Both the position numbers and the translations under genes were made by a program. From positions 6,263 to 70,262 of the forward strand of contig CAZSRU010000004.1 in NCBI GenBank assembly GCA_964609395.1: a stretch of DNA of 64,000 nucleotides, read 5' to 3'. Below the pieces are notes generated by a model. It ran no database searches, was not told where the DNA came from, and was given only the letters and a program-made list of their open reading frames with translations. Below, piece by piece: positions 20,076-53,133 of this stretch. The DNA is from an uncultured Victivallales bacterium (GTDB lineage: Bacteria > Verrucomicrobiota > Kiritimatiellia > UBA8416). The stretch's first letter is position 1. Each line of letters begins with the position of its first letter.

Positions 20076-20137
20076 GTCGTTTTCCCTTTGGAATAGAATA
20101 ACAGATGAACTGATGGGGTCAGCATTTTTCTTGAGAA

Positions 20138-24063: not shown

Positions 24064-24067
<4 letters not shown>
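22940..24067 (-). CDS. hypothetical exported protein (signal peptide; possible outer-membrane beta-barrel)
   Basis: Start at tandem ATGATG 24062-24067 overlapping TGA of upstream kinase (ATGA); hydrophobic N-terminus [25 protein letters not shown]; aromatic-rich C-terminus ...[13 protein letters not shown]; sandwiched between two paralogous kinases. Confidence 0.45.
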
Positions 24068-29379
<5,312 letters not shown>

Positions 29380-29595
29380 ATTGCCTCCTGGATACAAACG
29401 CCGACCCGACATTGTAGCGTATACACGGGTTCCAGAATAGCAGGTGAACGCGATCCGTCAACAGACATTTCGCAGAGTGCCGCTGTGCAGACGCATCCAA
29501 AAGGGGCCACAGATGCATGGAAAACCGTGATAATCGACTAAGACTGTGGTTTAAGCGTAACCAAGTAAGTGCGAGACTAAGGGTGGTACCAAGAG

Positions 29596-31394: not shown

Positions 31395-31400
31395 TGGCGA

Positions 31401-32369: not shown

Positions 32370-32383
32370 GCGCACTCCAGGGT

Positions 32384-33814
32384 TCAAGGCATGTCGTTCA
32401 CGGGGCCGGTCGATACAAGACGTTTGGGCAGCACCCGGAAGAACATGCCCACGTCGCGCAGCCAAGATCGTCTATGGATGTAATGCAGCGCGAAGATCCC
32501 GCGCAGCGAGGCGGGCGCATCGGGGGCCAGCAGAAGCTCATCGCTGATCGCGGCCGGATAATAGGCAGGCAGTTGACGGCGGCAGACCGGGGCATTCGCA
32601 GGATCGACCGGCGCATGGCCACAGAGGAACAGCCTGCCCGCCATTACCGCCGCCAGGGCCGGCACCCGGTCCAGGCTCAGCCGCCGGAACAACGCGGCCA
32701 GACGGCTGCCGTCCCCGCCGGCAAACTCCGTCAGCAGGAACTCCCGGTCATGACGGTCCAGCAGCGATTGACGCCGGAAGCGCCCCAGGCCGGTGATCCT
32801 GAACAGACTGCGGAAGAGAAGGAAGCCGGGAAGCATCGCCAGCCACAACACCAGGGCGACCAGCCGACCGGCCTGGGCCTGCAGCATGACCAGAACCTGA
32901 TTCGGCGGGCTGACCCTGTCCAGCAGCAGCGGATCGTTCAACTCCAGGCGCACCCCGCTTTCGGGGTCAAGCATGGTGCCGCCGCCGACAATCTTGCCGG
33001 TGATGTCGAGATTCCTGCCGATATAGGTCCCGTCCAGCACCACGCAGTCGCTAAGCTCGCTCTGGGAATCCACCACCACGCGGCTGCCGATGACGGCCGA
33101 TGGCCCGATCTTGCAGAGCGGGCGCAGGCGGGTGTCGCTGCCGATCATGATCGGCGGGGCGAGTATGCACGAGGGCGGGATGACGACGTTGTAGCCGATG
33201 TAGGAATCGTCCTGCAGTGAATAGCCCGGCGTCAGGTACCGCGTGATCTCGCCGCGCACCAGATCCATGTTTAGGCGGTAGTAATCCAGCGCGGTAGCGA
33301 GCGGGAATGCCTGGAGGCCGATGGTGCCGGGATCGGCAGTGGAACCGGGCGTGGCGCATGGGGCGGCGGCCAGGAAGGCGTCGAGGAATCCGGTGTCGCG
33401 GCTGCAGAATCCGAGTTGCCGTCCATCGCGCCTGAACAGCACGGTTTCCCCCGCTGCCGGGCACCGCACGGTCTCGCCGGTGCGGCGCGGGAAGAAAAGC
33501 TCGCGCACATAGAGCAGTCCGTCGCGCCATCGCGCCGGGTCACGCCGGGCAAGCCGGTCAGGGTCCGCTCCCTCGCGCAGCAGCAGGTACTCAATCGTCA
33601 CGCCCCAGCGGCTGCCGTCGCCGGCATACTTCTCGACCTCCAACGCCCCGTCACCCAGCACCAGGGTGATCTCGCGGATATCCATCGCCAGACAGCACTC
33701 GATCCAGAATTCAAGCAACGGACGGTTGCCCGCCGGTAGAAGCGCCAAGGGGTAGCGCACCGCATCTTCCGCCAGCCAGTCCGGGGTCTCGCTCGTGCAG
33801 AGAAGCGCTTTCAT
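32384..33814 (-). CDS. nucleotidyltransferase-like + left-handed beta-helix domain protein with hydrophobic C-terminal region
   Basis: N-terminal NTP-transferase-like fold (LALLPAGNRPLLEFWIECCLAMDIREITLVLGDG); hexapeptide-like repeats (IGSRVVVDSQSELSDCVVLDGTYIGRN); degenerate, family assignment tentative. Confidence 0.45.
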   Translation of the reverse strand: MKALLCTSETPDWLAEDAVRYPLALLPAGNRPLLEFWIECCLAMDIREITLVLGDGALEVEKYAGDGSRWGVTIEYLLLREGADPDRLARRDPARWRDGLLYVRELFFPRRTGETVRCPAAGETVLFRRDGRQLGFCSRDTGFLDAFLAAAPCATPGSTADPGTIGLQAFPLATALDYYRLNMDLVRGEITRYLTPGYSLQDDSYIGYNVVIPPSCILAPPIMIGSDTRLRPLCKIGPSAVIGSRVVVDSQSELSDCVVLDGTYIGRNLDITGKIVGGGTMLDPESGVRLELNDPLLLDRVSPPNQVLVMLQAQAGRLVALVLWLAMLPGFLLFRSLFRITGLGRFRRQSLLDRHDREFLLTEFAGGDGSRLAALFRRLSLDRVPALAAVMAGRLFLCGHAPVDPANAPVCRRQLPAYYPAAISDELLLAPDAPASLRGIFALHYIHRRSWLRDVGMFFRVLPKRLVSTGPVNDMP

Positions 33815-34152
33815 ACCGGTTTACCAACCGCCTCGTCCACGCTGTCGAACACCTCGAAGATGCGGTGCGTGCGGGTCAGCTCGAACACCATCCGCACGGC
33901 TTTGCGCAATCCCGCCAGCTTCAGGTCGTCCCCGCGCGTGGCCATCTGCTTGAGCATCGCGATCAGCAGCCCCAGCCCGGCGCTGTCGATCATCTCGACC
34001 CCGCCGAGGTCAACCACCACATCGCCGGAAGCCCACTCGCCCTGCAGCCACTCGCTGAAGCGCCGCCGCAGGCCGTCGACCTGCCCGGCACTCAGGATGC
34101 CCGCGAGGGTCACGACACCGATACCGCGTTCATGGGTGAATGTTGATTGCAT
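33811..34152 (-). CDS. STAS-domain anti-sigma-factor antagonist (SpoIIAA/HsbA-like)
   Basis: ~113 aa; GIGVVTLAGILSAGQVDGLRRRF...VVVDLGGVEMIDSAGLGLLIAMLKQMATRGDDLKLAG. Confidence 0.75.
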   Translation of the reverse strand: MQSTFTHERGIGVVTLAGILSAGQVDGLRRRFSEWLQGEWASGDVVVDLGGVEMIDSAGLGLLIAMLKQMATRGDDLKLAGLRKAVRMVFELTRTHRIFEVFDSVDEAVGKPV

Positions 34153-34172
34153 CGTCCTGTCCACCTTTCTGC

Positions 34173-34907
34173 TTAATACGCCCCCTTGCCCAGCAGGACA
34201 GCGGGGATGGTTTTGAGAAGAATCCCTATGTCATTCCAGACGCCCTGTGTCCGGATATACCGCACGTCGAGCTGCACCTGCTCGCGGAAGGGGATGTCGG
34301 AGCGGCCGGAGACCTGCCAGATGCAGGTGATCCCCGGAGTCACATGCAGGCGCTTGCGGTCCTCCAGCGTGTACTGCGCCACCTCCGCAGGCACCGGGGG
34401 CCGGGGACCGACCAGCGACATGTCGCCCAGCAGCACATTGATGAGCTGCGGGAGCTCGTCGAGACTGTAGCGCCGCAGGAAGCCCCCGATCCGGGTAATC
34501 CGCGGGTCCTTCTTCATCTTGAAGATGACGCCGTCGCCGGATTCGTTCTGCGCGAGCAGTTGCGTCTTGATCGCATCCGCGTTGCGCACCATCGAGCGGA
34601 ACTTGTAGAACCGGAACACGCGACCGTTCAGCCCGACCCGCTTCTGGAAGAAGAAGACAGGGCGCCCGTCCTCGATGATGATGATGGCCGCCAGGGTCAG
34701 GAACACCGGCGAGAGAACCACCAGCCCGGCCAGCGAGGCGGCAATGTCAATCAGGCGCTTGACCGCGAAAAGCGTGCCCAGGCTGGCCTCCCAGACCAGC
34801 AGCTTGACTTTCTGGCGGCGCTGGAACCGGCGCACCCCGGCCTTCGAGACGGGGAGATCGAGCGTTTTGAACACTTCCATCCTGGCCTGGTAGATATCTG
34901 CATTCAT
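34173..34907 (-). CDS. polyprenyl-phosphate sugar phosphotransferase (bacterial sugar transferase, priming enzyme)
   Basis: Start ATG 34905-34907 overlapping stop of upstream gene; motifs KFRSMVRNAD, LDELPQLINVLLGDMSLVGPRP, PGITCIWQVSGRS. Confidence 0.85.
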   Translation of the reverse strand: MNADIYQARMEVFKTLDLPVSKAGVRRFQRRQKVKLLVWEASLGTLFAVKRLIDIAASLAGLVVLSPVFLTLAAIIIIEDGRPVFFFQKRVGLNGRVFRFYKFRSMVRNADAIKTQLLAQNESGDGVIFKMKKDPRITRIGGFLRRYSLDELPQLINVLLGDMSLVGPRPPVPAEVAQYTLEDRKRLHVTPGITCIWQVSGRSDIPFREQVQLDVRYIRTQGVWNDIGILLKTIPAVLLGKGAY

Positions 34908-37045
34908 AAGCCGCTCCCGCCTTTCCCGTTCGCGCCAGGGCCGGTGTCGCCACAGTCCGGCAAGTCCTCCGATGCCAGATCCGCGCACAGGCGCTTCGCG
35001 ACCCCGGCATCCAGTTCATAAAGCGTATAGTTGCAGTCGTCGCGCCGGAAACTCCAGATCCGCTTGGTGATGCTCCAGATCATCTGCAGGCCGCGCCCGT
35101 TCTCCTGCGTGTCCGGGGTTGCGCTCGCGGACCGTTTCCGGATCTCGTCCGGCAGGTTCCACGGAATTCCATGGTCCCGGAACAGGATCGTGCATCCGTC
35201 CGCCGTGCGGCATAGCCGCAGGTGGCACTCCACCCCGGCCGGCAACCGCCCGTGCCGGACGGTGTTGACGTTGTGCTCTGTCGCCAGCAGCCGGGCAAAC
35301 AGCGCCGAATCGGGATCCCAGCCGTCGGCCAGGAGCCGGTCATGGATGTGCCCCGCGATCCGATCGGCATCCTCGACGGACGACAAGGCGTAAGCGGCGG
35401 AATCCAGCAGATCCTGCGGGGCGTGCAGATGCACGCAGAGCAGGCTGCAATCGTCCGTGTCAATCCGGTATCCTGCCTCGGCCAGATTCTCCAGCACCCG
35501 GTCCGGCGGGACCGACGAATTCGCGCGGTAACGGGCGGATCGGATGGCCACCTCCAGTCCCTCGGTACCGCAGGCGCTCCCGTCCGGGCGTCGCGCCTCG
35601 GTGAGCCCGTCGGTGTAGAGGAACACGGACGGTCGATCGGGAAGGGCGACGACAACCTCATCCTCGGGCACGTAGGGCGGCTTAAGACCGGGCGGCATGA
35701 CCCCGATCGGCATCCCGCCAGCCCCATCCGCGTGCAGGTCCCGTCGCTCGCCATGCTCGTCGTAGACCAGCGGCTCCGGATGGCCGCAGGAGATCATCTC
35801 CATCAGCCGGGTTGCCGGATCCAGGCGGATCATCAGCAGCGTGGCATAGATCTCCGGGTCGGGAACGCTCCTGCAGAACCGGTTGTGAATCTCGTTCACC
35901 AGCAGGTAGAGCGGCATCTGCGCACTGCCGAAACCGAAGGCGACATCGCTGACCAGGGCCTTGAGCAGGGCCGACACCAGGGCCGAGGCGACGCCATGGC
36001 CGCACACGTCCGCGACATAGGCCATGAGCCGCCCGTCGGGCAGCTCATGGATATCGAACATGTCGCCGCCGATCTGCTGGCTCGGCCGGTAGGCGACCAT
36101 GACATCGTAGTCCTTTCCTGGCCGGGGCACCCGATTGAAAAGCTTGGCCTGGAGCGCACCGGCGATTTCAAGTTCGCGCGACATGCGCAGGTTCCAGTTC
36201 TGCATGGCGTCGCTCTTGCGTTTCAACTGCAGGGCATTGCCGACACGCGCAAGCAGCTCGCGGATATGGAAGGGCTTGCGGATATAATCGAACGCCCCCA
36301 TCTGGAACGCATGCTCGACATCCTCCGCCGATGTGCGCGCCGTCACCATGATCACCGCTGTGCCAACGGTATCCGGGGACGCGGTCAGCCGGGCGCAGAC
36401 CTCATAGCCGCTGATGCCGGGCATCACGACATCAACCAGCGCGAGATCGGGCTGGCGGCAGCGCACAACCTCCAGTGCCTGCTCCCCGTTGTCCGCCGTC
36501 AGCACCGTGGCTCCACAGGCGGTCAGCAGCTTGCCGAGGTACTCCCGATTGGGGGCCTCGTCATCGACAACCAGGATATTGCCCTGAAGCAACGGCAGGT
36601 CGGCAGGCCAGCCGGACGATTCCATTCCGATGCCTCCTGCAGGAAACGTTTCGCTCCAGCCGACCAGTGCCCGCAGAAGATCCCGGCAGCGGGCGAAATC
36701 ACCTGCGCGCGCGGCCGTACCGAGGTCGTAACCGAGAACGGATATCTCAGGCAGGCCAACGGTCCCCCCCATGCCCTGAAGCGTATGGGCATGACGCCGT
36801 ATCCCCTGCTCGTCGGCTTGCGCGATCGCCTCGCCGATCCCCCGTGCGGCCAGTTCAATCTGCTGGTTGAACGCCTGGCGCAGCGTATCGTCCATGCCGA
36901 CAAAATCGGTGCGGTACGCCTCGCTTCGCGCCGCCAGATCGGGAATCAGCGGCAGCAGCCACTGGCGGGCAAGCATTCCCTGCAAATCCCCCGCGCTGGC
37001 GGGACCTGGCTCTGGCACACTGTAATTATGTTCCCTTTGCGACAT
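34904..37045 (-). CDS. Hpt-REC-PP2C(SpoIIE)-HATPase fusion protein (HptB+HsbR-like partner-switching regulator)
   Basis: Start ATG 37043-37045 (MSQREHNYSV...); Hpt-like HAHTLQGMGGTVG; REC (ILVVDDEAPNREYL...LALVDVVMPGISG); PP2C/SpoIIE (GGDMFDIHELPDGRLMAYVADVCGHGVASAL...TDGLTEA); RsbW-like GHKL kinase (LATEHNVNTVRHG...DHGIPW). Confidence 0.8.
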   Translation of the reverse strand: MSQREHNYSVPEPGPASAGDLQGMLARQWLLPLIPDLAARSEAYRTDFVGMDDTLRQAFNQQIELAARGIGEAIAQADEQGIRRHAHTLQGMGGTVGLPEISVLGYDLGTAARAGDFARCRDLLRALVGWSETFPAGGIGMESSGWPADLPLLQGNILVVDDEAPNREYLGKLLTACGATVLTADNGEQALEVVRCRQPDLALVDVVMPGISGYEVCARLTASPDTVGTAVIMVTARTSAEDVEHAFQMGAFDYIRKPFHIRELLARVGNALQLKRKSDAMQNWNLRMSRELEIAGALQAKLFNRVPRPGKDYDVMVAYRPSQQIGGDMFDIHELPDGRLMAYVADVCGHGVASALVSALLKALVSDVAFGFGSAQMPLYLLVNEIHNRFCRSVPDPEIYATLLMIRLDPATRLMEMISCGHPEPLVYDEHGERRDLHADGAGGMPIGVMPPGLKPPYVPEDEVVVALPDRPSVFLYTDGLTEARRPDGSACGTEGLEVAIRSARYRANSSVPPDRVLENLAEAGYRIDTDDCSLLCVHLHAPQDLLDSAAYALSSVEDADRIAGHIHDRLLADGWDPDSALFARLLATEHNVNTVRHGRLPAGVECHLRLCRTADGCTILFRDHGIPWNLPDEIRKRSASATPDTQENGRGLQMIWSITKRIWSFRRDDCNYTLYELDAGVAKRLCADLASEDLPDCGDTGPGANGKGGSGL

Positions 37046-37166
37046 CGTGGCGCATGGTACAGGCAATTACACTTATTTGGCAAGCGCGTTCTTCCGCCAC
37101 CGTGGTTCAGAAAAGCAACCGTCAACGCGCTTGCATTGCCCGCCATTTTCTGGGAATCTTCCCGCC

Positions 37167-39255
37167 ATGGCTATACAACCCCTTTTCGATGAACCGTTTC
37201 TGCGTGCCCAATGGGGCTCGGAGTTCGAGTCCTTCCAGGAAAGTCCCGAGGCCGCCGCCCTGCTGGCACGTCTGCGGGCCTGGTCGGATCGCGAGCAGCT
37301 CAACGAGCGGTCGTCCGAGACCGCCTTCATCCAGCGCTTTTTCGTGGAAACGTGGGGCTACCGCCTGCAAGGCCATGCCGAAACGGGCGACGCCTATACC
37401 TGCCGCCCGCAATTCGAGGTGGCCCGCGCGGGCCAGTCCGGCGGCATCGGCTTTGCCGATCTGGCACTGGGCCGTTTCGGCCGCGATGGCATCCCCCAGG
37501 TGCTCTGCGAATTCAAGGATATCCGCTCCGGGCTCGACGCCCGCCAGCTCCGCAAGAATAACGACCGCTCACCCGTGGACCAGTGCTTCGACTAGCCATC
37601 GAGAAGACCTTCTACCGCGAATACCACGACTACCGCCAGTTCGTCTTCCGCACCCTTGTCGAAGCCAATCCGGATTTCCCCGGCACGCGTGGCCGTCTTG
37701 TGCGCCTGACCCAGCGCTTTCTCGACCGCTGCATCTTCATCCTCTTCTGCGAGGATATGGGCCGCGTCCTGCGCTATCCGCCCGAGCTGCTGCGCGATCT
37801 GCTGATGGAGGAAAGCCAGAGCCGCTTCTACAACCCCGAGGGAACGCGCCCCTGGGATGCGATGCGCGACCTCTGCCGGGCCATGCGCGAGGGTGGCCAT
37901 TTCGGCCCGCATACGATTGACCGCTTCAACGGTGGACTCTTCGAGCCAGACCCCGAACTCGATGCCTTCCCGAATGGGTCGTGCGCTATCTCGTCGAGCA
38001 GACCCTCGGCACGCGCCTCGACGACATCAAGGCCGAACTCGGCTTTACCGCCCTGCCGCCGCTCGACGAGGCCGCTCTTGCCGAATACCGGGCCTACCGC
38101 AATGACCGCCGCCGCACGGCACCCGCCGCCAGCGCGCATCTCGAGTTCCTCCGCAAATACCGGTTCCGGCTCGACCGCGTGCGCATCGTGGATCCCGCCT
38201 GCGGCTCCGGGGCCTTCCTGATCCAGGCGCTCAACCGCCTTGTCGAGGAATACCGCTGGGTCATCGCCGAGCAAGCCCGCATCGAGGGCGAACAGAGCCT
38301 CTTCGATCAGGACTCCGTCATCCGTTCCATTCTCGCCCACAACATCTACGGCGTGGACATCAACCCCGAATCCGTCGAGATCACCAAGCTCGCGCTATGG
38401 CTGCACACCGCGGCCCCCGGCAAACCGCTCTGCTCGCTGGATGCCAACATCCGCTGCGGCAACAGCCTGGTCGGACCCGACTTCGCCGAGTTCTACCGCC
38501 AGAAGCACACCACGCTCTTCGAGCAGGCCGACGAGAACGAGCGCGAGCGCATCAACGCCTTCGACTGGGAAGCCGCCTTTGCCGACGTCTTCACCCACGG
38601 CGGCTTCGACTGCGTCGTCGGCAATCCGCCCTACATCAAGCTCCAGCACTTCCGCCGTACCCAACCGGACATCGCCGATTACTTAGTAGGGCAAGCTTCC
38701 AGCTTGCCAAATCGCAAGCAAGATGCTTGGGCTACTTACGAAAGCACCCAGACCGGCAACTTCGACATGTACCTGCCCTTCATCGAAAAGGGGATCCGAC
38801 TGCTGCGCCCCGAAGGCCGCATGGGCTACATCGCGCCAAACGTCTGGATGGTCAACGACTACGGCAAGGCCCTGCGCGGTCTCGTGCGCCGTACCCGCGC
38901 GCTCGACCGCTGGGTCGATTTCAAAAGCCACCAGATCTTCGACGAAGCCATCACCTACACCGCCCTCCAGTTCTTCTACGACCGCCCCGACACCCCCTTC
39001 ATCGCGGCCCAATGGCGCTACACCCTCCGCGACGCCAACGTAACGGAAGCCTACGACGGCAAACGCCTTCTCAAAGACCTCCTCACCCTCCGCACCACCA
39101 CCGACACCCCCCTCCGCGACCGCATCCTCACCCTCGACGCCGAAATCACCGCCCTGGACACCACCATAGCCACCCGCGAAACCGCCCTAAACGCCATTAC
39201 CTACCGCCTCTACCGCCTAACGCCGGAAGAGATTGCAACGGTGGAGGCGGGGTGA
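37167..39255 (+). pseudogene. MmeI-family Type IIG restriction-modification enzyme gene disrupted by at least two frameshifts
   Basis: Three table ORFs in three frames (37167..37595, 37583..38221, 37981..39255). N-terminal PD-ExK region (GIGFADLALGRFGRDGIPQVLCEFKD). MmeI-like helical region (IEKTFYREYHDYRQF...CIFILFCEDMG). Gamma-class MTase motif I VDPACGSGAFL and motif IV VVGNPPYIK. C-terminal ...YRLYRLTPEEIATVEAG. Confidence 0.7.
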
Positions 39256-39872
39256 TGAATGCCGGTGTGAACACCGCCAGCAAAACGCCCGCCGCGCCCC
39301 CTCGTCCTGCGCCCCTTGTTCACAAGGGGCCTGTTCACAAGGGGCCAAGAGAAAAGGTGCAAGGCTACCGCTTCCCCACCCGCGATTACCGCCAACCCGC
39401 CTTCTACCTGATCACGATGAGCGCCCTCGACCGCCGCCCGCGTTTCGCCACCTGCGCCGAGAACCGCACCACGCTGACCGAGGACGGCCAGCTCGTTTAC
39501 GACCTCTGGCACCGCATCGCCAAAGACTACCCGCAAATTGCGCTTTCGACGCTGGTCATCATGCCCGACCGCCTGCACGGCATCGTCTCTCGATTCATCT
39601 CGCCGGGGGAAAAGGACATCGCCCGCGCCGCGCTGGATGCGGGCGGCGTGGTCATCCTCATGAAACCCGACGGATTCCCGCCCTGCTTCAAGCCCCACGG
39701 CAAATACTTCGACCTCTGTGTCCAAGGCCGGCTCCTCATCCTCGCCTGCCGCCCGCCCGCGGCAGGCAACACCCCCGTCACCCGCGATCTCTGCCTCGCC
39801 ATGAACCGCTGGTGCCAGCACGTTGCAAAGCCACTATGCCCCGTGGATGGAGAAGATGAGGGCAGGGAATGA
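39255..39872 (+). CDS. IS200/IS605-family (RAYT-like) transposase-related protein, probably inactivated derivative
   Basis: 205 aa; YRFPTRDYRQPAFYLITMSALDRRPRF and VIMPDRLHGIV (HuH degenerate to RLH); 5' end contains two copies of palindromic ccccttgttcacaagggg REP-like unit; start overlaps stop of Type IIG gene. Confidence 0.45.
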   Translation: MNAGVNTASKTPAAPPRPAPLVHKGPVHKGPREKVQGYRFPTRDYRQPAFYLITMSALDRRPRFATCAENRTTLTEDGQLVYDLWHRIAKDYPQIALSTLVIMPDRLHGIVSRFISPGEKDIARAALDAGGVVILMKPDGFPPCFKPHGKYFDLCVQGRLLILACRPPAAGNTPVTRDLCLAMNRWCQHVAKPLCPVDGEDEGRE

Positions 39873-39890
39873 GCATGAATCGAAAACAGC
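39853..39890 (+). repeat. partial/degenerate copy (rep0) of the ~145-bp cassette repeat
   Basis: gggcagggaatgagcATGAATCGaaaacagc resembles core ctgggaatgtgataggaatatgaatcATGAATGCGgaac of rep1-3; lies at the GC-content drop. Confidence 0.3.
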
Positions 39891-39899
39891 AATACCAAC

Positions 39900-40697
39900 G
39901 TGGCAATCGGAAGCAGCGTTATTACAATCGGCAACTATGCGTTCTCAGGCTGCAGAAAACTGACTAACATTACAATTCCAGACAACGTTAGCACCATCGG
40001 TTCATATGCATTCCAATACTGCGACAGCCTGGCCAACGTGATCATGGGCACAAGTGTTTCTTATATCGGTTCCTTTGCTTTTGAAAACTGCTATGGCTTA
40101 CTAAGCGTCGTGATTCCTGACAACGTCACTGATATTGGCAACTGGGCTTTCGGAGGCTGCACAAATCTGGCCCGTGTAACAATCGGCAACGGCGTCACCA
40201 CCATCGGGTCCTACGCTTTCTACTGGTGCTCAACTCTCACCGTTGTGTATTTCACTGGTGACGCACCTGCTCCCGATGCTTCAGTATTCGAAAACTCCCC
40301 CGCCACCATCTACTACTTGCCTAACACTATCGGCTGGGGCGACACATATTCCACCCGTCCCGCCAAACTCTGGAATCCCACGTTCACATTCATCGATATC
40401 AACGCAGGCATCATGACCTATACTATTGCAGGTACTCCGGAGATTCCGATCGCGATTGAAGTTCGTACGAATCTCCTCTCAGGCGAATGGACTCGGCTCT
40501 CCACAACTAACCTTACTGAGGGATTCCTTAATATCCAAATCTCCCGACTCAACCAACCATGCTGCTCTGTTTTATCGTATCGTCGGCCCGTGAGTGGAGC
40601 AGCAGAGCTTTTTTGGGGCTCACCGCTCTTCACCTTGAACTCCCTAATGGGGCAGCGCGATCAATTATTGTGCATGGTAATGACTCTGGGAATGTGA
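39900..40697 (+). CDS. BspA-type leucine-rich-repeat protein, probably a fragment
   Basis: GTG start, no RBS or signal peptide; repeated ~22-aa units (I..IGNYAFSGC..L..ITIPDNVSTIGSYAFQYC..L..V); low-GC; 3' end runs into repeat rep1. Confidence 0.5.
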   Translation: MAIGSSVITIGNYAFSGCRKLTNITIPDNVSTIGSYAFQYCDSLANVIMGTSVSYIGSFAFENCYGLLSVVIPDNVTDIGNWAFGGCTNLARVTIGNGVTTIGSYAFYWCSTLTVVYFTGDAPAPDASVFENSPATIYYLPNTIGWGDTYSTRPAKLWNPTFTFIDINAGIMTYTIAGTPEIPIAIEVRTNLLSGEWTRLSTTNLTEGFLNIQISRLNQPCCSVLSYRRPVSGAAELFWGSPLFTLNSLMGQRDQLLCMVMTLGM

Positions 40698-40775
40698 TAG
40701 GAATATGAATCATGAATGCGGAACTTACAAGGCGTTGTGTGCGGGCGATGACGGAGACCGGCGAGGGATCGCTGG
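40628..40775 (+). repeat. ~145-bp interspersed repeat, copy 1 (rep1)
   Basis: ~85-90% identical to copies at 41803-41950 and 43979-44122 over ...gcgatcattttgtgcatggcaatgactctgggaatgtgataggaatatgaatcatgaatgcggaacttataaggcgttgtgtgcgggcgatgacggaaaccgg.gaggg. Confidence 0.75.
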
Positions 40776-40921
40776 TGCCGCTGTGCCGTAAAATCGTGCG
40801 CAATTTCCACGTGGCCGAGGTTCCGCATCGGAGCAGGCAGACGAAAACAAAGCAAAGCGTCTTCTTGCAAACGTGACCAGCGTCGGTCATAGTCTATCGC
40901 AAAAGCGCAGGCAGGTACTGG

Positions 40922-41722
40922 ATGACAGTTCAGAATTCAATTACTTTTGGCGACTACATCGTCTTTGTCGATGAAACCGGCGATCACGGCTTAAACAGCA
41001 TCAGCAAGGAATTCCCGCTGTTTGGTTTGGCATTTTGCGTCGTTCGAAAATCCGAGTACATCGGCACCATCACGCCCGCTCTGCGTCGGCTGAAGTTTCA
41101 GACATTCGGGCACGATATCATCGTACTGCATGAGCACGATATCAGGAAACGCGAGAATGCCTTTGCCATGATGAGCAGGCAACCTCGTGAGGCATTTCTA
41201 AATGCGCTAACAAAAATCATCGAATCGGCCGCATTTAGACTCATCACGGTCATTATCGATAAACGGCTTTTGTCTCCTTCGCTGGAAGCGCAAAACCCTT
41301 ATCACATGGCGCTTTTGTTTGGTCTTGAACGTGTATACCGCATGCTATCAGAATGCGGGCAGGCCGACACATTTACGCATATTGTCGTTGAGTCGAGGGG
41401 CAAGCGGGAAGATGCTGAACTCGAACTGGAGTTCCACCGCATCACGGAAGGTGAGAATACGTTCGCCAAACCATTGCCGTTCCGTCTGATCATGGCCGAT
41501 AAACGGACCAATTCCGAAGGGCTTCAGCTTGCGGATATGGTTGCACGCCCCGTTGCGCTTTCAATCCTTCGCCCTGATCAGGCAAACCGAGCCTTTGATG
41601 TCTTACGTGACAAATTCTGGACCAGCGCCGACGGCATCATGGATGATTACGGTCTTAAAGTGTATCCGACAAAAACGAAAGGGCCACCGGGAAGTCCCAG
41701 TAGCCCTTCGCCGAACGGGTAG
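40922..41722 (+). CDS. DUF3800-family protein
   Basis: 266 aa; N-terminal YIVFVDETGDHGL and C-terminal SEGLQLADMVARP signature regions; low-GC; flanked by rep1 and rep2. Confidence 0.6.
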   Translation: MTVQNSITFGDYIVFVDETGDHGLNSISKEFPLFGLAFCVVRKSEYIGTITPALRRLKFQTFGHDIIVLHEHDIRKRENAFAMMSRQPREAFLNALTKIIESAAFRLITVIIDKRLLSPSLEAQNPYHMALLFGLERVYRMLSECGQADTFTHIVVESRGKREDAELELEFHRITEGENTFAKPLPFRLIMADKRTNSEGLQLADMVARPVALSILRPDQANRAFDVLRDKFWTSADGIMDDYGLKVYPTKTKGPPGSPSSPSPNG

Positions 41723-41802
41723 TCCCATTCCAAATCTGGTTTGATACTAGCCTGTCTTAGTGAAATAGCCAATCATTTTTTCAGTTGGCATTTGGGGTAC
41801 TC

Positions 41803-41950
41803 CATTCTCCCCTTTGAATTGCCGAGGGGCCGCGATCATTTTTGTGCATGGCAATGCGCTGGGAATGTGATAGGAATATGGATCATGAATGCGCAACTTA
41901 TAAGGCGTTGTGTGCGGGCGATGACGGAAACCGGTGAGGGCACGCTGGTG
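41803..41950 (+). repeat. ~145-bp interspersed repeat, copy 2 (rep2)
   Basis: see rep1; carries conserved short ORF start ATGAATGCGcaacttataaggcgttgtgtgcgggcgatgacggaaaccggtgagggc (MNAQLIRRCVRAMTETGEG). Confidence 0.75.
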
Positions 41951-41999
41951 ATGGTTTTTTGAGAATTGAACGGAGTATGACATTGGAAGGAGGCCGGTT

Positions 42000-43280
42000 A
42001 TGGCCAAGATTGAAGGGTTCAGGGTACGCAACTTTGGCGTGCTGAGGGATGTTACGCTTGGGAAATTGTGGAATTTGCAGACTGCCCAGCCGTTGACCCC
42101 CATGACTGCGGTTATCGGCAAGAACGGCGTCGGCAAAAGCACGTTGTTCAATGCATTCGGCTTTCTCGCGGATGCCTTGAAATCGGGTGTCGAGGAGGCT
42201 TGCGACGCGCGCGGGAGAGGCGGATTCGACAGGATTCGGTCTCAAGGCATCAAAGAGCCGGTAGAGTTCGAGATCTACTACAAGGAAGAGGGCAGTACAC
42301 GTCCAATCACGTACTCACTCTCGATGGATCTGGACAAGACCGGCCGTCCCTATGTGAAGCAAGAACGGTTGCGGCAGCGGCGCAAGGGCCAGAAGCATGG
42401 GTGGCCATTCTCGTTTCTGATGCTGAACGATGGCAAGGGTGTCGCGTGGAAAGGCGAGGATGCCGGCTGGGAGGTGAACGAGGACAAGGAGTTGTTCGAT
42501 CTGGCAGGTCTTATTGACGAGGTGCAGCGCAAGGAAGGTCCTGAAACCGAAGTCGTTGAGTTGCAGGACAAGCGTAAACTCGGCATTGCCACACTCGGGT
42601 CTTTGAAACAACATCCCCGCATCTCGCTGTTCCGGCAGTTTATCGAAGGTTGGTATCTGAGCTACTTCACGCCTGACGCCGCCCGAGGATTGCCGCTGGC
42701 CGGTCCGCAACGCCATTTGAACATTCACGGCGACAATGTCGGTAATGTCGTTCAGTACATGGAGCGGGAATACCCCGCTAAGTTCCAGACCGTACTGGAT
42801 CGCATCTCGAAGAAGATTCCGGGTATCGATAAGATCACCTGGGATAAGACGAAAGACGGCCGGTTGCTGCTCTGTTTTAACGACAAGGGATTCGAAGATC
42901 CCTTTTATGCCCAACAAATGTCGGACGGCACACTGAAAGTATTCGCCTACCTTCTTTTGCTTGAAGACCCTTCGCCCCCGCCGTTCCTATGCATTGAGGA
43001 ACCAGAGAACGGGCTCTATCACAAGTTACTCGAGACTCTGGCGGCTGAGTTCCGTGCCCATGCAACGGGAAGAAAAGGCGGTTCGCAGGTTTTCGTCACT
43101 ACGCATCAACCGTATTTTGTCGATGCACTGACCCCCGAAGAGGTGTGGGTATTGGAAAAGGGCAAAGACGGTTTCTCAACCGTCCGTCGCGCTAGCGACG
43201 ATCAAACCGTACAGAACATGGTAACCGAAGGGTTGCCCCTGGGCGGCCTGTGGTACAGCGACTATCTTGACGCGAGGTAA
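42000..43280 (+). CDS. AAA/ABC-type ATPase of two-gene defence-like module (AbiLi / PARIS AriA-like)
   Basis: ATG after GGAAGGAGG; Walker A VIGKNGVGKSTLFNAFGFL; ABC signature-like QMSDGTLKV; Walker B/D-loop PPFLCIEEPENGLY; H-loop VFVTTHQPYF. Confidence 0.75.
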   Translation: MAKIEGFRVRNFGVLRDVTLGKLWNLQTAQPLTPMTAVIGKNGVGKSTLFNAFGFLADALKSGVEEACDARGRGGFDRIRSQGIKEPVEFEIYYKEEGSTRPITYSLSMDLDKTGRPYVKQERLRQRRKGQKHGWPFSFLMLNDGKGVAWKGEDAGWEVNEDKELFDLAGLIDEVQRKEGPETEVVELQDKRKLGIATLGSLKQHPRISLFRQFIEGWYLSYFTPDAARGLPLAGPQRHLNIHGDNVGNVVQYMEREYPAKFQTVLDRISKKIPGIDKITWDKTKDGRLLLCFNDKGFEDPFYAQQMSDGTLKVFAYLLLLEDPSPPPFLCIEEPENGLYHKLLETLAAEFRAHATGRKGGSQVFVTTHQPYFVDALTPEEVWVLEKGKDGFSTVRRASDDQTVQNMVTEGLPLGGLWYSDYLDAR

Positions 43281-43284
43281 TCGC

Positions 43285-43944
43285 ATGCACTTTGAAATAC
43301 TGGTTGAAGACCAATCCGGGAAAAAGCTGTTGGACGAGATTGTGCCGCGCATCATTGGTGCTCCCCACACCTTTCGAGTACTGCCTTACAAGGGGATTGG
43401 AAAAATCCCGAAAGGATTGAAGCCTGGTTCTGATGCGAGCAAACGAATCCTTCTGGATCAACTGCCCCGCATTCTCAAAGGGCACGGAAAGACCTTTGCC
43501 GGCTACGGTCCGGGCTATCTTGCGGCGGTGGTTATTGTCTGTGATCTGGATCGCAAGTGTTTCCATGAATTCCGCCAAGAGCTTCTCGGAATTTTGGATG
43601 CTTGCGACCCGAGACCAGATACCCGATTCTGCCTTGCTGTCGAGGAGGGAGAGGCATGGCTTCTTGGAGACCGCGAGGCTATTCGAGCGACCTATCCGAA
43701 TGCAAAGTCCGCAGTTCTTGATGGCTACGTTCAGGACAGCATCTGCGACACTTGGGAATTGCTTGCAGACGCAATCCATCCCGGAGGCTCAAGAGCGTTG
43801 ATTGCTGCGGGATGGCAGGCCGCTGGAGCTGCCAAGTCGGCCTGGGCCACAGCGATTTCTCCTCACATGAAGATTGAAGACAACAATTCGCCAAGTTTTC
43901 ACTATTTTCGAAGCAAATTGCTAGAACTTGCTGGACAGAATTAA
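43285..43944 (+). CDS. DUF4276-like protein (predicted Toprim/OLD-like partner of the ATPase; AbiLii-like)
   Basis: ATG 43285 seven nt after GAGGT and 5 nt after ATPase stop; N-terminus MHFEILVEDQSGKKLL typical of DUF4276 (conserved E in ILVE); 219 aa. Confidence 0.55.
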   Translation: MHFEILVEDQSGKKLLDEIVPRIIGAPHTFRVLPYKGIGKIPKGLKPGSDASKRILLDQLPRILKGHGKTFAGYGPGYLAAVVIVCDLDRKCFHEFRQELLGILDACDPRPDTRFCLAVEEGEAWLLGDREAIRATYPNAKSAVLDGYVQDSICDTWELLADAIHPGGSRALIAAGWQAAGAAKSAWATAISPHMKIEDNNSPSFHYFRSKLLELAGQN

Positions 43945-43978
43945 TGGTCTGTTCTGTCTCGCAATTAAGGGGGTGTCG

Positions 43979-44122
43979 CCATTCTCCTCTTTAAATTGCC
44001 GTGTGTCGGCCGCGATGGTTGTTGAGCATGGCAATGACTCTGGGAATGTGATAGGAATATGCATTATGAATGCGGAACTTATAAGGCGTTGTGTGCGGGC
44101 GATGACGGAAACCGGCAAGGGC
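43979..44122 (+). repeat. ~145-bp interspersed repeat, copy 3 (rep3)
   Basis: see rep1; its short ORF (MNAELIRRCVRAMTETGKGLI) ends TGA directly abutting ATG of next gene (TGAATG). Confidence 0.75.
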
Positions 44123-44131
44123 TTGATATGA

Positions 44132-44410
44132 ATGAAGGGCTATGTTAGCTTGTTCCGCACGGGGGTAAACGAAATGGTTATGGTTCAGGCACGAATTCTC
44201 GATCCTACACACTTGGAACTGGCAAAGCCGATTGCGGCCGGGCACGAACGCAATATCTTTGTTCTGATTACGGAACAACCGCATGCGGATGCCGAGAAAC
44301 AGCAGTGGATGGATGCCTCTTCGGAATCCCTGCAGAATGCATACGGTGACACGGAACCAGAGTACACCCCCTCGATGGTACGCGAGGCCAATCCGGAGCA
44401 CCGGGCATGA
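44132..44410 (+). CDS. small DUF104/antitoxin-like protein (tentative)
   Basis: 92 aa; N-terminal MVMVQARILDPTHLELAKPIAAGHERNIFVLI resembles SpoVT/AbrB-like or DUF104 antitoxin N-termini; no partner toxin seen. Confidence 0.3.
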   Translation: MKGYVSLFRTGVNEMVMVQARILDPTHLELAKPIAAGHERNIFVLITEQPHADAEKQQWMDASSESLQNAYGDTEPEYTPSMVREANPEHRA

Positions 44411-44609
44411 AGGAAGGCGTTATTCGGCTGGGGTTTCTCGCGGTCTTACCGAACAAGCGAATCGTGGGAGCAATCGGCCATATTGCTCCTGAGCGACACA
44501 CGCGCCTTCTGCGAACGCTTAGCAGGCATCTGATCGGGAATAGCCCCCTTTCCTGACATTCTCTCTCGCCGCCATCGTCAATTCTAACAACACGGAATGG
44601 CACCGACCC

Positions 44610-45623
44610 TTACCAGCGCAGGTGGCCTCGGCGCAGGTCGCCTGCCGCGCCCGCGGCCACGGCCAGGTTGAGCAGGGTGCGTGCGAGCGCGCCGGGCAGC
44701 GCCTTCCAGACGGCAGCCCCGCGACACTGCCGCAACTGCCGCCAGGGCACGGGCAGCATGATGCCGATCCGCCGCCATGGGACCCGGCGGCCATGCTCGC
44801 GGATCAGACGACGGAACCAGTCCGGGTCAGCCTGGGTCTGGACACGCATCCACCCGCCCACCGCGATGCCCTCGCGCGCCAGCGCTTCCGCCTTCTCGAA
44901 AAGCAGGATGTTGCACAGCGTGCCGATCAGGATCCGCTTCTCGTGGCGGTAAACCGAACCCAGGCTCGTCTCGGCCTCGAACACGTGATACGCGCCTGCC
45001 GCCCGCACCAGTCTCGACTCGTTCTCGGGATGCGTGAATCCGTCGGTCACCAGCATGGCCTTGATGAACCCGTCCTCCACCAGCATGGGTTCCGGCAGGA
45101 AAATGGCGCGCATGGCCGCGGCACGGGCGGCATAGAGCTGCCCGCAGAGTTTCGGGGGGCCGGCCGCCGCCAGCACCGAGGCGGAAAGCGATAGGCGGTC
45201 CCGTACGCGGCTGACCTTGCCTCCGGCAAGATCCTTGACCGGCTGGTCGACGGCGGCGACCGCCTCGGGATTTGCAGCCAGCGCATCGATCAGCGCGCGC
45301 AGGGTGTCCGGCTGCGGGAGGCGTATGTCCGCATCGGCCAGGATCAGGATATCGGCCGCCGCCGGAGCCAGTGAGTGGACGAACTGGTTCCAAGCGTTGG
45401 CCTTGCCTGCCTGCTCCAGGACGACGACGCGATGCGGCACGTCGAACCCGTCCAAGGCCTCGCGCGCCCGCTCCGCCGTGCGGTCGGTCGAGCCGTTCAC
45501 CACCACAACCAGGCTGGCCTCGCCATCCAGCGTCCGCCAGAAGTCCTGCCGCCGTACATCCGCAAGCGTGTCGCCGATGCCACGCTCCTCGTTATGCGCC
45601 ATCATGCCAAGACAGATATTCAT
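44610..45623 (-). CDS. glycosyltransferase family 2
   Basis: 337 aa; GT-A N-terminal domain (ICLGMMAHNEERGIGDTLADV...LVVVVNGSTDRT), DxD ILILADADI. Confidence 0.75.
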   Translation of the reverse strand: MNICLGMMAHNEERGIGDTLADVRRQDFWRTLDGEASLVVVVNGSTDRTAERAREALDGFDVPHRVVVLEQAGKANAWNQFVHSLAPAAADILILADADIRLPQPDTLRALIDALAANPEAVAAVDQPVKDLAGGKVSRVRDRLSLSASVLAAAGPPKLCGQLYAARAAAMRAIFLPEPMLVEDGFIKAMLVTDGFTHPENESRLVRAAGAYHVFEAETSLGSVYRHEKRILIGTLCNILLFEKAEALAREGIAVGGWMRVQTQADPDWFRRLIREHGRRVPWRRIGIMLPVPWRQLRQCRGAAVWKALPGALARTLLNLAVAAGAAGDLRRGHLRW

Positions 45624-45689
45624 AAGGATTTACATTTAATGGGGTTTGCTATAAAAACGCAAGATCATAACCCGCCGAGGAACAAATAC

Positions 45690-47081
45690 ATGACACCAAT
45701 GGTACCGCTAGCGATGTTCGGATGGCCCCCGCTGGCCATCTGGCTATTCGCGCGATTCCGTCACCGCCCGCGCCTGGCGGTGATCGCGGGGTTCCTGCTG
45801 GCCTGGATGTTCCTGCCCAATTACGGCTACAAGCTGCCCGCACTGCCGGATTACACGAAGATCAGCGCGGCCTGCTTCGGCATCCTGCTCGGGGCGGCCA
45901 TCTTCGACCCGGCGGTATTCCGCCGCTTCCGGTTGCGGGGCTGGGATGCCCCGCTGCTGGTGTGGACGCTGGTACCGTTCCTCACCTCGCTGTCCAACGG
46001 ACTGGGTGCGTACGATGGCGTCTCGGCCGCGCTGGGCCGCTTCACGCAATGGGGAATCCCCTACTTTCTCGGGCGGCTCTACTTCAACCGCCGCGAGGCC
46101 CTGGAGGATCTGCTGCTGGGCTTCTTCATCGGGACGCTGGTCTATATCCCCTTCTGCTGGTTCGAGATCGTCATGAGTCCCCGCCTGCACCGTATCGTCT
46201 ACGGTTTCCACCCCCATTCGTTCGCGCAGGCCAAGCGCTCGGGCGGCTGGCGCCCCGTGATCTTCATGCAGCACGGCCTGATGAATTCCATGTGGATGGT
46301 GTCCGGCTTTGTCGCCGGCTTCTCGCTCCTGATCAGCAGGCGGCTGGGCCGTCGCCTGCCCGGTCCCCTGCCCGCCTGGACGGCGGCAATCGCCGTGCTG
46401 TTCGTCACGATCATCCTGCTGAAATCCACCGGGGCCCTGTTCCTGCTGCTGCTTGGAACGCTTGTACTAATGGTGTTCCGCACACTGCGCACAGCCCTGC
46501 CGCTGGTGCTGCTGCTGGCCATACCGCTCACGTATGCCACCGTACGGTCCACCGGACTCTGGGACGGGACTCACCTGATCGAGGCGGCCGCCAGTGCCGC
46601 CAACGCGGAACGGACCGGGTCGCTGGCCTTCCGCATCGAGAACGAGACGATCCTTGCCGGGCATGCCTTGAAACGCCCGCTGCTGGGCTGGGGCGAGTGG
46701 GGCCGCTCGTTCGTCCGCGACGAGGAGGGCCGGATCGTCTCGGTGCCCGACGGGCTCTGGATCCTGGCGTTCGGCAAAAGCGGCTATGTCGGGCTCTCGG
46801 CACTGCTGCTGCTCTTCTTTGTCCCCCCGCTGCTGTTCCTGCGCCGCTACCCGCCTGCCACATGGAAGGACCCCGCCGTGGCCGCCGTGCTGGCGGGACC
46901 GCTGCTGCTGGCGCTTTTCGCGCTCGACAGCCTGATGAATGATATGTTTAATCCCCTGATGCTGCTGCTGGCGGGCGGACTGACCGGCCTCTGGCTGCAG
47001 GATGATCCCGGCGACACGAACGATGTGAGCGGCATGAGCCCCCCCGCGCCGGTGCAGGCGACCGGACCCAGGCTGATCTGA
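45690..47081 (+). CDS. O-antigen ligase/polymerase-family integral membrane protein
   Basis: Start trimmed to ATG 45690 (MTPMVPLAMFGWPPLAIWLF...); ~11 TM helices with large loop (HLIEAAASAANAERTGSLAFRIENETILAGHALKRPLLGWG). Confidence 0.7.
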   Translation: MTPMVPLAMFGWPPLAIWLFARFRHRPRLAVIAGFLLAWMFLPNYGYKLPALPDYTKISAACFGILLGAAIFDPAVFRRFRLRGWDAPLLVWTLVPFLTSLSNGLGAYDGVSAALGRFTQWGIPYFLGRLYFNRREALEDLLLGFFIGTLVYIPFCWFEIVMSPRLHRIVYGFHPHSFAQAKRSGGWRPVIFMQHGLMNSMWMVSGFVAGFSLLISRRLGRRLPGPLPAWTAAIAVLFVTIILLKSTGALFLLLLGTLVLMVFRTLRTALPLVLLLAIPLTYATVRSTGLWDGTHLIEAAASAANAERTGSLAFRIENETILAGHALKRPLLGWGEWGRSFVRDEEGRIVSVPDGLWILAFGKSGYVGLSALLLLFFVPPLLFLRRYPPATWKDPAVAAVLAGPLLLALFALDSLMNDMFNPLMLLLAGGLTGLWLQDDPGDTNDVSGMSPPAPVQATGPRLI

Positions 47082-47091
47082 AGGAACACCT

Positions 47092-48555
47092 ATGAGTTCT
47101 ACACCAACGCCCCGCCACCCCTCGATGCGGCGCCAGGCCATCCTCGGATCGCTCTGGACCCTGTTCGGCTACGGGGCCTCGCAGGTACTCCGGCTGATCA
47201 GCAACCTGGTTCTCGCCCGGCTGCTCTTCCCGGAGGCGTTCGGCCTGATGGCGCTGGTGAACGTGTTCATGCAGGGGCTGCAGATGTTCTCCGATATCGG
47301 GATCGGCCCCGGCATCATCCAGAACCGGCGCGGAACCGACCCCGCGTTCCTGCGTACCGCGTGGACAATCCAGGTCTTCCGCGGCTTCGCGCTCTGGCTG
47401 CTGTGCTGCGCGGCCGCCCCCGCCGTGGCCCGTTTCTTCGCGGCCTCGGATCCCATGGCCCTCGACCTGCGCCTGCTGCTGCCGGTCACCGGACTGACCG
47501 CGCTGCTGGGCGGCTTCACCTCCACCTCGGTATTCACGCTCAACCGCAAGCTCGACATGCGCCGCATGACCCTGCTCGAACTGGTGCCGCAAGGGATCTC
47601 GCTGCTGTTCATGGCGCTCTGGGCATGGCAGCACCCCTCGGTCTGGGCCCTTGTCGGCGGCGGGCTGGTCTTCAGCCTGGTGCGGCTGGTAATGAGTCAT
47701 CTGATGAACCGCGACCATCGCGACGGCTTCGCCTGGGAGCCGGAAGCGCGCCGGGAACTGTTCCGTTTCGGGCGCTGGGTCTTTCTCAGCACCGTGATCA
47801 GCTTCCTGGCGACCCACCTGGACCGGCTGCTGCTGGGACGCCTGCTGACACTCGGGGAACTGGGCATCTACAGTATTGCCATGACGCTGGCGCGGGTGGC
47901 GATCCACACGTCCAGCAGGCTGAGTTCCTCCGTGATCTTCCCGCTGCTCTCCCGCCACCAGGACGACCCGCCCCGGCTGGTGGATTCCTGCCTGCGGGCA
48001 CGCACGGGCGTACTCTTCGCCAGCGGCGCGATCTGCAGCGGCTTCGCCCTCTTCGCCCCGCTCTTCTTCGAGAGCCTCTATGATGCCCGCTACGCCGCCG
48101 CCGGGGATATCTCCCGCTGGCTGGCGCTCTATACCTGGACACACGTGCTGCTGGTCAGCATGGACCGCATCCCGCTGGCACTCGGCCACCCGCGGCAGCT
48201 TTTCCTGGCCAACCTGATCACCACCGCGGGCATGACGGCGGCCGTAGCAGGCTACCGGCTGCTGCAGCTTCCCGGCTTCATCGCCGGCATGGCGTTCGCC
48301 AACCTGCTCTCGCATGCGTTCCTCGCCGCGACGCTGCCGGCACACCGCCGCCGGATGGGGCTGCAGTCGGCCGCCTTCACCGGCGCGTTCGCGCTCTACA
48401 CGCTCGCGGGGGTCGCCGTGCTGGAGACGGCGAAAGCCGCGTGGCCGCTGCTACCCTATGCGGCCCTCGTGTGCGCCGCCGCCGCCCTCCCCTTCCTCCC
48501 CGCCGGACTCTGGATGCTGAAACTGGCACGCCAGAAGAAGAGGGGACGCGCATGA
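47092..48555 (+). CDS. wzx: polysaccharide flippase (Wzx/MOP superfamily)
   Basis: 487 aa, ~12 TM helices; N-terminal signature ILGSLWTLFGYGASQVLRLISNLVLARLLFPEAFGL. Confidence 0.8.
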   Translation: MSSTPTPRHPSMRRQAILGSLWTLFGYGASQVLRLISNLVLARLLFPEAFGLMALVNVFMQGLQMFSDIGIGPGIIQNRRGTDPAFLRTAWTIQVFRGFALWLLCCAAAPAVARFFAASDPMALDLRLLLPVTGLTALLGGFTSTSVFTLNRKLDMRRMTLLELVPQGISLLFMALWAWQHPSVWALVGGGLVFSLVRLVMSHLMNRDHRDGFAWEPEARRELFRFGRWVFLSTVISFLATHLDRLLLGRLLTLGELGIYSIAMTLARVAIHTSSRLSSSVIFPLLSRHQDDPPRLVDSCLRARTGVLFASGAICSGFALFAPLFFESLYDARYAAAGDISRWLALYTWTHVLLVSMDRIPLALGHPRQLFLANLITTAGMTAAVAGYRLLQLPGFIAGMAFANLLSHAFLAATLPAHRRRMGLQSAAFTGAFALYTLAGVAVLETAKAAWPLLPYAALVCAAAALPFLPAGLWMLKLARQKKRGRA

Positions 48556-50930: not shown

Positions 50931-51042
50931 AGAATCGACTCCACAGGCGATCGTTCTCGATTAACCGTTTCTTCATACGGACATCATACGATACTAACGC
51001 CATGCTTTGATCATGCTGCCATCTATTACGAAAGGTGGCAGG

Positions 51043-52973: not shown

Positions 52974-52985
52974 GGCGGGATACGG

Positions 52986-53128: not shown

Positions 53129-53133
53129 ATATC

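Follow-up and report, generated by a model that had tools for sequence, protein, structure and literature searches.

The 64,000-nucleotide stretch of DNA analysed here (the window) comes from an uncultured Victivallales bacterium of the Kiritimatiellia. It carries a compact gene cassette encoding, one after the other, a four-domain regulator, a small phosphoglycosyl transferase (PGT, the priming enzyme), a single-domain STAS protein and a protein of 476 amino acids (aa). On balance, the locus is probably a phosphorelay-driven phospho-switch of the partner-switching type, with the first committed step of exopolysaccharide synthesis as its output. The core known from RsbU/RsbW/RsbV-type systems is present, with the PP2C aspartate motifs, the GHKL N, G1 and G2 boxes and the STAS serine. 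An earlier note on this DNA had proposed post-translational control of polysaccharide production through phospho-serine on a STAS protein. Domains, motifs and conservation largely support that proposal, but the concept is not new. Control of polysaccharide synthesis by phospho-serine on STAS is already known from SypE/SypA and, since 2026, from HenR/All4160, the nearest functional precedents, which the earlier note did not name.

The regulator had been described in the earlier note as four modules joined in one protein of 713 aa, and Pfam finds the Hpt, receiver (REC), SpoIIE/PP2C and HATPase_c_2 domains, all scoring above the curated cut-offs. The length of 713 aa is counted from the ATG at 37045; public gene calls start at Met24 (36976) and give 690 aa, and the start given by the open reading frame (ORF) lister is a TTG at 37066, giving 720 aa. 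Conservation was read from an alignment of 29 family sequences that share 38–83% identity with the window protein. Residues H87, L89, G91, G93 and G94 of the Hpt domain are invariant, as are D161, D162, D205, T235 and K257 of the receiver. The PP2C domain retains G326-G327-D328, D346, G349, H350, D479, G480, D531 and D532 throughout, with the motifs GGD, DVxGHG, TDG and DD invariant in the family. Absence of the N and G boxes from the GHKL domain had been set beforehand as grounds for refuting the proposal; E590/N594 (N box), G626 (G1) and G650-R651-G652-L653 (G2) are all invariant. The HAHTLQG helix, first noticed only as Hpt-like, belongs to a true Hpt domain with an invariant H87. A chance match was considered for this helix and rejected, because the score lies above the cut-off, the histidine is invariant and stand-alone Hpt genes occupy the equivalent position in relatives.

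Structure prediction agrees with this domain order. The AlphaFold2 (AF2) model of the regulator (mean pLDDT 83.7) contains an Hpt bundle of four helices at residues 53–133, a receiver, a long linking helix and the PP2C and GHKL folds. The best Foldseek matches were RssB of Pseudomonas aeruginosa (REC-PP2C, 3eq2) and the RsbU-RsbW protein Rv1364c of Mycobacterium tuberculosis (3ke6, E 9e-17), in which a PP2C (RsbU) domain and an RsbW kinase are likewise fused. Besides a PAS sensor, Rv1364c contains a fused STAS domain; it is not known to have a REC or Hpt domain or to be linked to polysaccharide genes. NCBIfam, which has no model for HsbR, gave generic receiver matches only for the regulator, and the best REC-PP2C model, RssB (NF045505), scored far below its cut-off. 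All four Pfam domains occur together in about 70 clusters at 90% identity, and those with names come from metagenome bins labelled Kiritimatiellota, Lentisphaerota or Verrucomicrobiota and from a few isolates.

The cassette genes and those downstream of them are closely packed, as read from the sequence. The regulator and PGT genes share an ATGA overlap, the PGT and STAS genes are 20 nucleotides (nt) apart, and the STAS gene overlaps the 476-aa gene, again by ATGA. A gap of 14 nt leads to a GT2 glycosyltransferase gene and a further 6 nt to a GT4 gene, which shares an ATGA overlap with the gene of a membrane-anchored single-receiver protein; the gene of a CHASE4 hybrid kinase follows after 183 nt. 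The order and the 4-nt overlaps or small gaps claimed in the earlier note thus held at each junction read, as did the presence of a 113-aa STAS protein after the PGT. As judged from gene packing only, these genes would form an operon in which the regulator is transcriptionally wired to the sugar genes. The catalytic motifs of the PGT (KFRSM, the Asp-Glu dyad DE and GPRPP) are conserved in 43 orthologs, and the protein scores 285 bits against TIGR03025, slightly under the model cut-off of 295.55. Residues D56, S57, G59, L60 and G61 of the STAS protein are conserved in 49/49 sequences (the window's and 48 orthologs). In none of the orthologs recovered, 43 of the PGT and 48 of the STAS protein, do the two share a gene; the enzyme fused to STAS here is a GT26 glycosyltransferase, considered below. 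The hydrophobic stretch at the C-terminus of the 210-aa receiver protein spans about 34 residues, and a single REC gene also lies near the cassette in relatives.

The arrangement has been retained over a wide range of species. In a scan of one genome per GTDB species, with the cassette loci searched by tblastn using the window's proteins, 54 loci with a full-length relative were found, all of them in Kiritimatiellia or other bacteria of the Planctomycetes-Verrucomicrobia-Chlamydiae (PVC) group. The order regulator-PGT-STAS-476-aa is present in 38 of the 54 loci and four more are compatible with it but ended by a contig end; three have another arrangement and two are uninformative. Recurrence in dozens of species shows that chance does not account for the arrangement, and the regulators of the 38 loci are only 37–47% identical to that of the window. 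Conservation of the GT2, GT4 and other sugar genes is limited to close relatives. The cassette of the type strain Pontiella sulfatireligans F21T has SecDF/cation-efflux genes on one side and RecJ on the other, and no further glycosyltransferase accompanies it. The variable glycosyltransferase genes and the solitary Pontiella cassette together indicate that the conserved unit is the switch with the PGT and the 476-aa protein. The earlier description of a glycosyltransferase operon was right as to gene order, but the conserved partners are the small PGT and the 476-aa protein, and the GT2 and GT4 genes vary with lineage. No description of the Kiritimatiellia cassette, of the Hpt-fused form or of a pseudo-PGT partner was found in the top-ranked open-access literature.

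The placement of the Hpt domain differs among relatives. It lies in one ORF with the receiver in 12 species loci; in about 40, among them Pontiella (PF01627, 44.8 bits), it has an ORF of its own, about 140 aa long, directly upstream of the regulator. In two loci (L021 and L023) it is the C-terminal domain of an upstream hybrid kinase with the order PAS-HisKA-HATPase-REC-REC-Hpt. Such fusion and fission of the Hpt domain points to one relay made up of kinase, Hpt and regulator, and the placement supports a predicted phosphorelay input to the regulator. The density of hybrid histidine kinases in the window is unusually high, with four in 64 kb (5436–8972 on the forward strand, 18099–22936 and 24064–29412 on the reverse strand). 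Only the seven-transmembrane (7TM) hybrid kinase (22936–20138) has its own Hpt domain, and three of the four have none. The CHASE4 hybrid kinase, one of these three, is a candidate phosphodonor to the fused Hpt, and in one relative (L013) a full-length ortholog of 64% identity is found on the regulator's strand, upstream of it. Downstream of the CHASE4 kinase gene in the window are the 7TM hybrid kinase, a REC-HK-REC protein and a REC-GGDEF protein (18050–17112).

Two further observations concern the neighbourhood of these kinases. Neither Pfam nor NCBIfam has a match for a 381-aa protein (22940–24085, reverse strand), whose start overlaps the end of the CHASE4 kinase gene and which precedes the 7TM kinase. 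In several relatives a glycogen/starch phosphorylase gene (PF00343) lies between the hybrid kinase and the Hpt or regulator gene (L087, 7470–9977; P0088 locus, 7097–9592), a placement that hints at a link of storage-glucan breakdown to polysaccharide priming.

The 476-aa protein had been called nucleotidyltransferase-like in the earlier note. Its fold is indeed pyrophosphorylase-like, but the signature loop is absent, and a degenerate PGT-like domain at its C-terminal end had been missed. The AF2 model (pLDDT 87) matched most closely, by Foldseek, tlr0611, GMPPA/GMPPB and eIF2B gamma/epsilon, which are sugar-nucleotide pyrophosphorylases that bear a left-handed beta-helix. Residues 341–470 align with the core of the adjacent PGT (BLASTP E 3e-6; hhalign 94% probability, E 1e-7), and PF02397 is precomputed in four orthologs. 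No PGT structure was among the top 50 Foldseek matches of the whole model, which are dominated by the pyrophosphorylase and beta-helix part, so the assignment of the PGT-like domain is based on sequence and profile evidence. In this region the KFRSM segment is absent, D-R/L replaces the Asp-Glu dyad and there is no PRP. The GGxGTR(L) loop, KFR and PRP are each found in 0/32 members of the family. On these motif losses the protein is a putative double pseudoenzyme, and we hypothesize that it serves the PGT as a regulatory or scaffolding partner. Its family is small (34 matches), the few named sources are of the Kiritimatiellia type, such as Tichowtungia aerotolerans, and in the Kiritimatiellia loci examined the gene belongs to the cassette. 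For the 476-aa, 381-aa, Wzy-like and 313-aa proteins, NCBIfam gave no specific family. The coordinates of the features of the window are given in Table 1.

Table 1. Positions of the cassette, its domains and associated features in the window.
Feature	Position	Strand	Evidence
Single receiver domain with C-terminal membrane anchor, 210 aa	29596..30228	-	PF00072 77 bits
Hybrid kinase CHASE4-PAS-GAF-HisKA-HATPase-REC-REC, 1782 aa, without Hpt	24064..29412	-	Pfam
GT4/GT1 glycosyltransferase, 389 aa	30225..31394	-	Pfam
GT2 glycosyltransferase, 322 aa	31401..32369	-	Pfam; start at 32369
476-aa protein: pyrophosphorylase-like fold, left-handed beta-helix, long helix, degenerate PGT-like domain	32384..33814	-	Pfam, AF2
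Single-domain STAS protein, 113 aa, Ser57 in DSAGLG	33811..34152	-	PF01740 68 bits; TIGR00377
Small monotopic PGT (priming enzyme), 244 aa	34173..34907	-	PF02397 225 bits
Four-domain regulator, Hpt-REC-PP2C(SpoIIE)-GHKL Ser kinase	34904..37045	-	Pfam, family alignment, AF2, Foldseek
Regulator: RsbW-type GHKL serine kinase domain (HATPase_c_2)	35039..35326	-	residues 574-669, PF13581 32.3 bits, cut-off 27.4
Regulator: PP2C/SpoIIE phosphatase domain	35426..36040	-	residues 336-540, PF07228 110 bits
Regulator: receiver domain, phospho-acceptor D205	36242..36577	-	residues 157-268, PF00072 98 bits
Regulator: Hpt domain, phospho-His H87 in HAHTLQG	36665..36880	-	residues 56-127, PF01627 32.2 bits, cut-off 24.6
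Inserted 7.5-kb island splitting the ancestral locus	37047..44600	.	absent from L004, L088
GT2 gene, first upstream of regulator in relatives; island between here	44610..45623	-	Pfam; L004, L088 order
Divergent half: Wzy-like polymerase, Wzx flippase (47092-48555), conserved unknown gene	45639..49382	+	Pfam, synteny with L004, L088
GT26 (WecG/TagA) glycosyltransferase with two C-terminal STAS domains	49407..50930	+	Pfam

We infer the mechanism throughout, from each phosphotransfer step to the way the switch turns and to what STAS acts on. A hybrid kinase without its own Hpt, such as the CHASE4 kinase (29412–24064), would pass phosphate from its receiver to H87 of the regulator. The phosphate would then move to D205 of the regulator's own receiver, and phosphorylation there may alter how the PP2C phosphatase and RsbW-type kinase activities are balanced, as in HsbR (PMC6482189) and SypE (PMC10120452). 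That balance would decide whether Ser57 of the STAS protein is phosphorylated, and possibly whether the DSxxLG serines of the GT26-STAS-STAS protein are. One phospho-form of STAS may bind the PGT, the 476-aa protein or both, and so turn the formation of undecaprenyl-PP-sugar on or off. Gating of the PGT by STAS is suggested by the strict synteny, by the lack of a sigma factor gene nearby and by the precedent of All4160. The position of the STAS gene, flanked by the PGT and a PGT-like pseudoenzyme, makes these the candidate STAS target.

Reports exist on several systems that resemble parts of the locus. In Anabaena PCC 7120, All4160 is a fusion of STAS and Bac_transf domains that is inactivated by phosphorylation of the STAS serine, and the REC-SpoIIE phosphatase HenR reactivates it (PMC13555669; preprint 10.64898/2026.04.08.717354). 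In the HenR/Alr3423/All4160 system, as proposed for the present locus, STAS phosphorylation depends on a REC-SpoIIE phosphatase together with an RsbW-type kinase; the enzyme that the STAS domain directly controls there is a polysaccharide enzyme of the Bac_transf family (PMC13555669). In Anabaena, however, one protein joins STAS to Bac_transf, and kinase and phosphatase come from separate, unlinked genes (PMC13555669), whereas here kinase, phosphatase and Hpt are fused, a free STAS gene lies next to the PGT gene, and the STAS-fused enzyme is GT26. By analogy, All4160 may act as a Rosetta stone that links the PGT gene here to the STAS gene beside it. In the syp locus of Vibrio fischeri, the STAS protein SypA, controlled by SypE, acts below transcription on a target that is unknown (PMC10120452). 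The likeness lies in a response regulator that unites a serine kinase with a PP2C phosphatase and that, in the window by prediction, acts on a STAS protein whose gene is part of a polysaccharide locus (PMC10120452). SypE has the order kinase-REC-PP2C without Hpt (PMC10120452), unlike the Hpt-REC-PP2C-kinase order of the window, and no pseudo-PGT partner has been described for the syp locus, whereas a PGT and a PGT-like pseudoenzyme flank the STAS gene here. In Myxococcus xanthus, phosphorylated EpsW activates the PGT EpsZ, which places the priming step under post-translational control by a signalling protein (PMC12802240). Both loci encode a PGT of the Wzx/Wzy pathway and a single-domain receiver (PMC12802240; 30228–29596 in the window), but EpsZ belongs to the large monoPGTs and its activator is a receiver protein, with no STAS, PP2C or kinase (PMC12802240). 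Scores against the NCBIfam models of EpsW, EpsZ and EpsA were far below the cut-offs.

The likeness in domain order is to P. aeruginosa's HptB-HsbR-HsbA system and the CrsR-CrsA system of Shewanella oneidensis, whose regulators share the REC-PP2C-GHKL order, receive Hpt input from hybrid kinases and act on a single-domain STAS protein with a phosphorylatable serine (PMC6482189). The proposal in the earlier note of a fusion of the HptB plus HsbR type agrees with this order and with the Hpt domains that are separate or borne by an upstream kinase in relatives (PMC6482189). Unlike in HptB-HsbR, the Hpt is fused to the regulator here, though split in most relatives, and unlike in the HsbR/CrsR systems, the gene of a priming transferase stands between the regulator and STAS genes. 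Their outputs FlgM, HsbD and RpoS have no counterpart in the window locus, and the lineage is Kiritimatiellia, not Proteobacteria.

The kinase domains of HsbR and CrsR sequester RpoS (PMC6482189), so the output could also be transcriptional and lie elsewhere in the genome. The GHKL domain would then sequester a sigma factor encoded elsewhere, the STAS protein would titrate the kinase, and the polysaccharide genes would be controlled at the level of transcription. Several points weigh against control of the priming step and partly toward this alternative. The REC-PP2C-GHKL order also occurs in HsbR and CrsR, where the third domain binds RpoS (PMC6482189). The remaining seven of the 54 loci carry regulator and STAS only, without the PGT or the 476-aa gene, so the module is not obligatorily tied to a PGT. 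An island inserted upstream of the regulator parts it from its ancestral upstream gene and clouds the origin of its promoter, and a scan of 23500–37500 for promoter and terminator consensus gave counts equal to those of shuffled sequence, that is, at chance level. The comparison with HsbR, HsbA, SypE, SypA and All4160 was made by published description. We nevertheless regard an anti-sigma output as rather unlikely. Among the Pfam-scanned ORFs of the 64-kb window, none was identified as a sigma or anti-sigma factor gene, although a distant gene is possible. Such an output also leaves unexplained the STAS gene between the PGT and the pseudo-PGT in at least 38 species and the two STAS domains on a glycosyltransferase of the locus.

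That glycosyltransferase had been marked in the earlier note as a GT26 fusion with STAS domains, and Pfam assigns to it a WecG/GT26 domain and two STAS domains. The GT26-STAS-STAS form is abundant, with 115 full-length clusters among the best 120 matches; no characterised example of this architecture was found. The second STAS domain keeps DSxxLG in 113/115 members and the first keeps the serine in 98/115. The gene lies no more than 10 kb from the cassette in at least six loci (L004, L009, L022, L053, L088 and the P0088 locus). The fusion is thus a candidate second substrate of the kinase and phosphatase. It could even be the main one, with direct regulation of the enzyme as in All4160 (PMC13555669) and with the free STAS protein as a decoy or buffer. 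This seems improbable, since the synteny of the free STAS gene is stricter than that of GT26-STAS, Pontiella sulfatireligans has no GT26-STAS gene within 10 kb, and such fusions are not confined to Kiritimatiellia, one being from a Desulfonatronum isolate. That the genes are mere neighbours, with the switch controlling an unrelated process such as motility or cyclic diguanylate (c-di-GMP) through the REC-GGDEF protein encoded downstream, has a parallel in the action of HsbA on a diguanylate cyclase in Pseudomonas (PMC5085249, PMC6482189), but is very improbable, because gene order and 4-nt overlaps are kept among such divergent regulators and the REC-GGDEF gene is not conserved beside the cassette.

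Control of the priming step by the phospho-switch can be taken one step further. The PGT, the double pseudoenzyme and the STAS protein may constitute one regulated priming complex gated by the phosphorylation state of STAS, an extension that we offer tentatively and hold to be doubtful. In such a complex the pseudoenzyme would pair with the active PGT in the membrane and sense nucleotide-sugar, as GMPPA does for GMPPB. If true, this would be a new way to control polysaccharide initiation and would put the priming transferase forward as the long-sought target class of SypA-like STAS proteins.

The wider locus has been interrupted. In L004 (a 5-Mb genome) and L088 the order is GT26-STAS, unknown gene, Wzx and Wzy on one strand, and GT2, regulator, PGT, STAS, 476-aa gene, GT2, GT4 and REC on the other, with the upstream GT2 gene (GT2b) abutting the regulator gene. 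Two independent polysaccharide clusters in the window were considered and rejected, as the genes are contiguous and divergent in both relatives. Since the two clusters of the window form one divergent locus there, the segment at 37.05–44.6 kb is an insertion. It contains a frameshifted methylase of the Eco57I/MmeI type in three overlapping ORF pieces (37047–39255) and a block of low GC content (50–54% GC) with LRR_5, DUF3800 and AAA_21+DUF4276 genes, which look defence- or mobile-element-like. A gene of about 260–275 aa always lies between Wzx and GT26-STAS (window 48441–49382, forward strand; L004 5250–6026; L088 5277–6104), and its only family match is a sub-threshold one to Kdo/WaaP kinase-like proteins (E 9e-4).

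Two other parts of the window lie outside this locus. The stretch 8990–16990 (reverse strand) is of lower GC content (55–56% vs about 64%), carries a ResIII helicase, an N6/N4 DNA methylase, an 841-aa S8 subtilase and an AAA ATPase, and is possibly a restriction or defence island. A HAD hydrolase and a class-III aminotransferase are encoded at 51007–58110 (forward strand), together with an ABC transporter made up of a solute-binding protein, an ATPase with a TOBE domain and a fused permease; the set resembles an uptake and catabolism cluster for aminoalkylphosphonate or polyamine.

How polysaccharide synthesis is throttled at the priming step is an active question, and the first mechanistic cases, EpsW-EpsZ and HenR-All4160, date from 2025–2026. 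The cassette offers a compact, class-wide natural experiment, as four to five adjacent genes together encode the kinase and phosphatase, Hpt and STAS, along with a minimal PGT and a PGT-like pseudoenzyme. It has cultured carriers in Pontiella sulfatireligans F21T and Tichowtungia aerotolerans, and the hypothesis that STAS acts on the PGT is testable with small proteins. Overall, the cassette nominates a concrete target for STAS-type regulators, extends the HsbR-type regulators to the PVC superphylum and, through the mobile placement of the Hpt domain, provides an example of phosphorelay wiring fixed by gene fusion.

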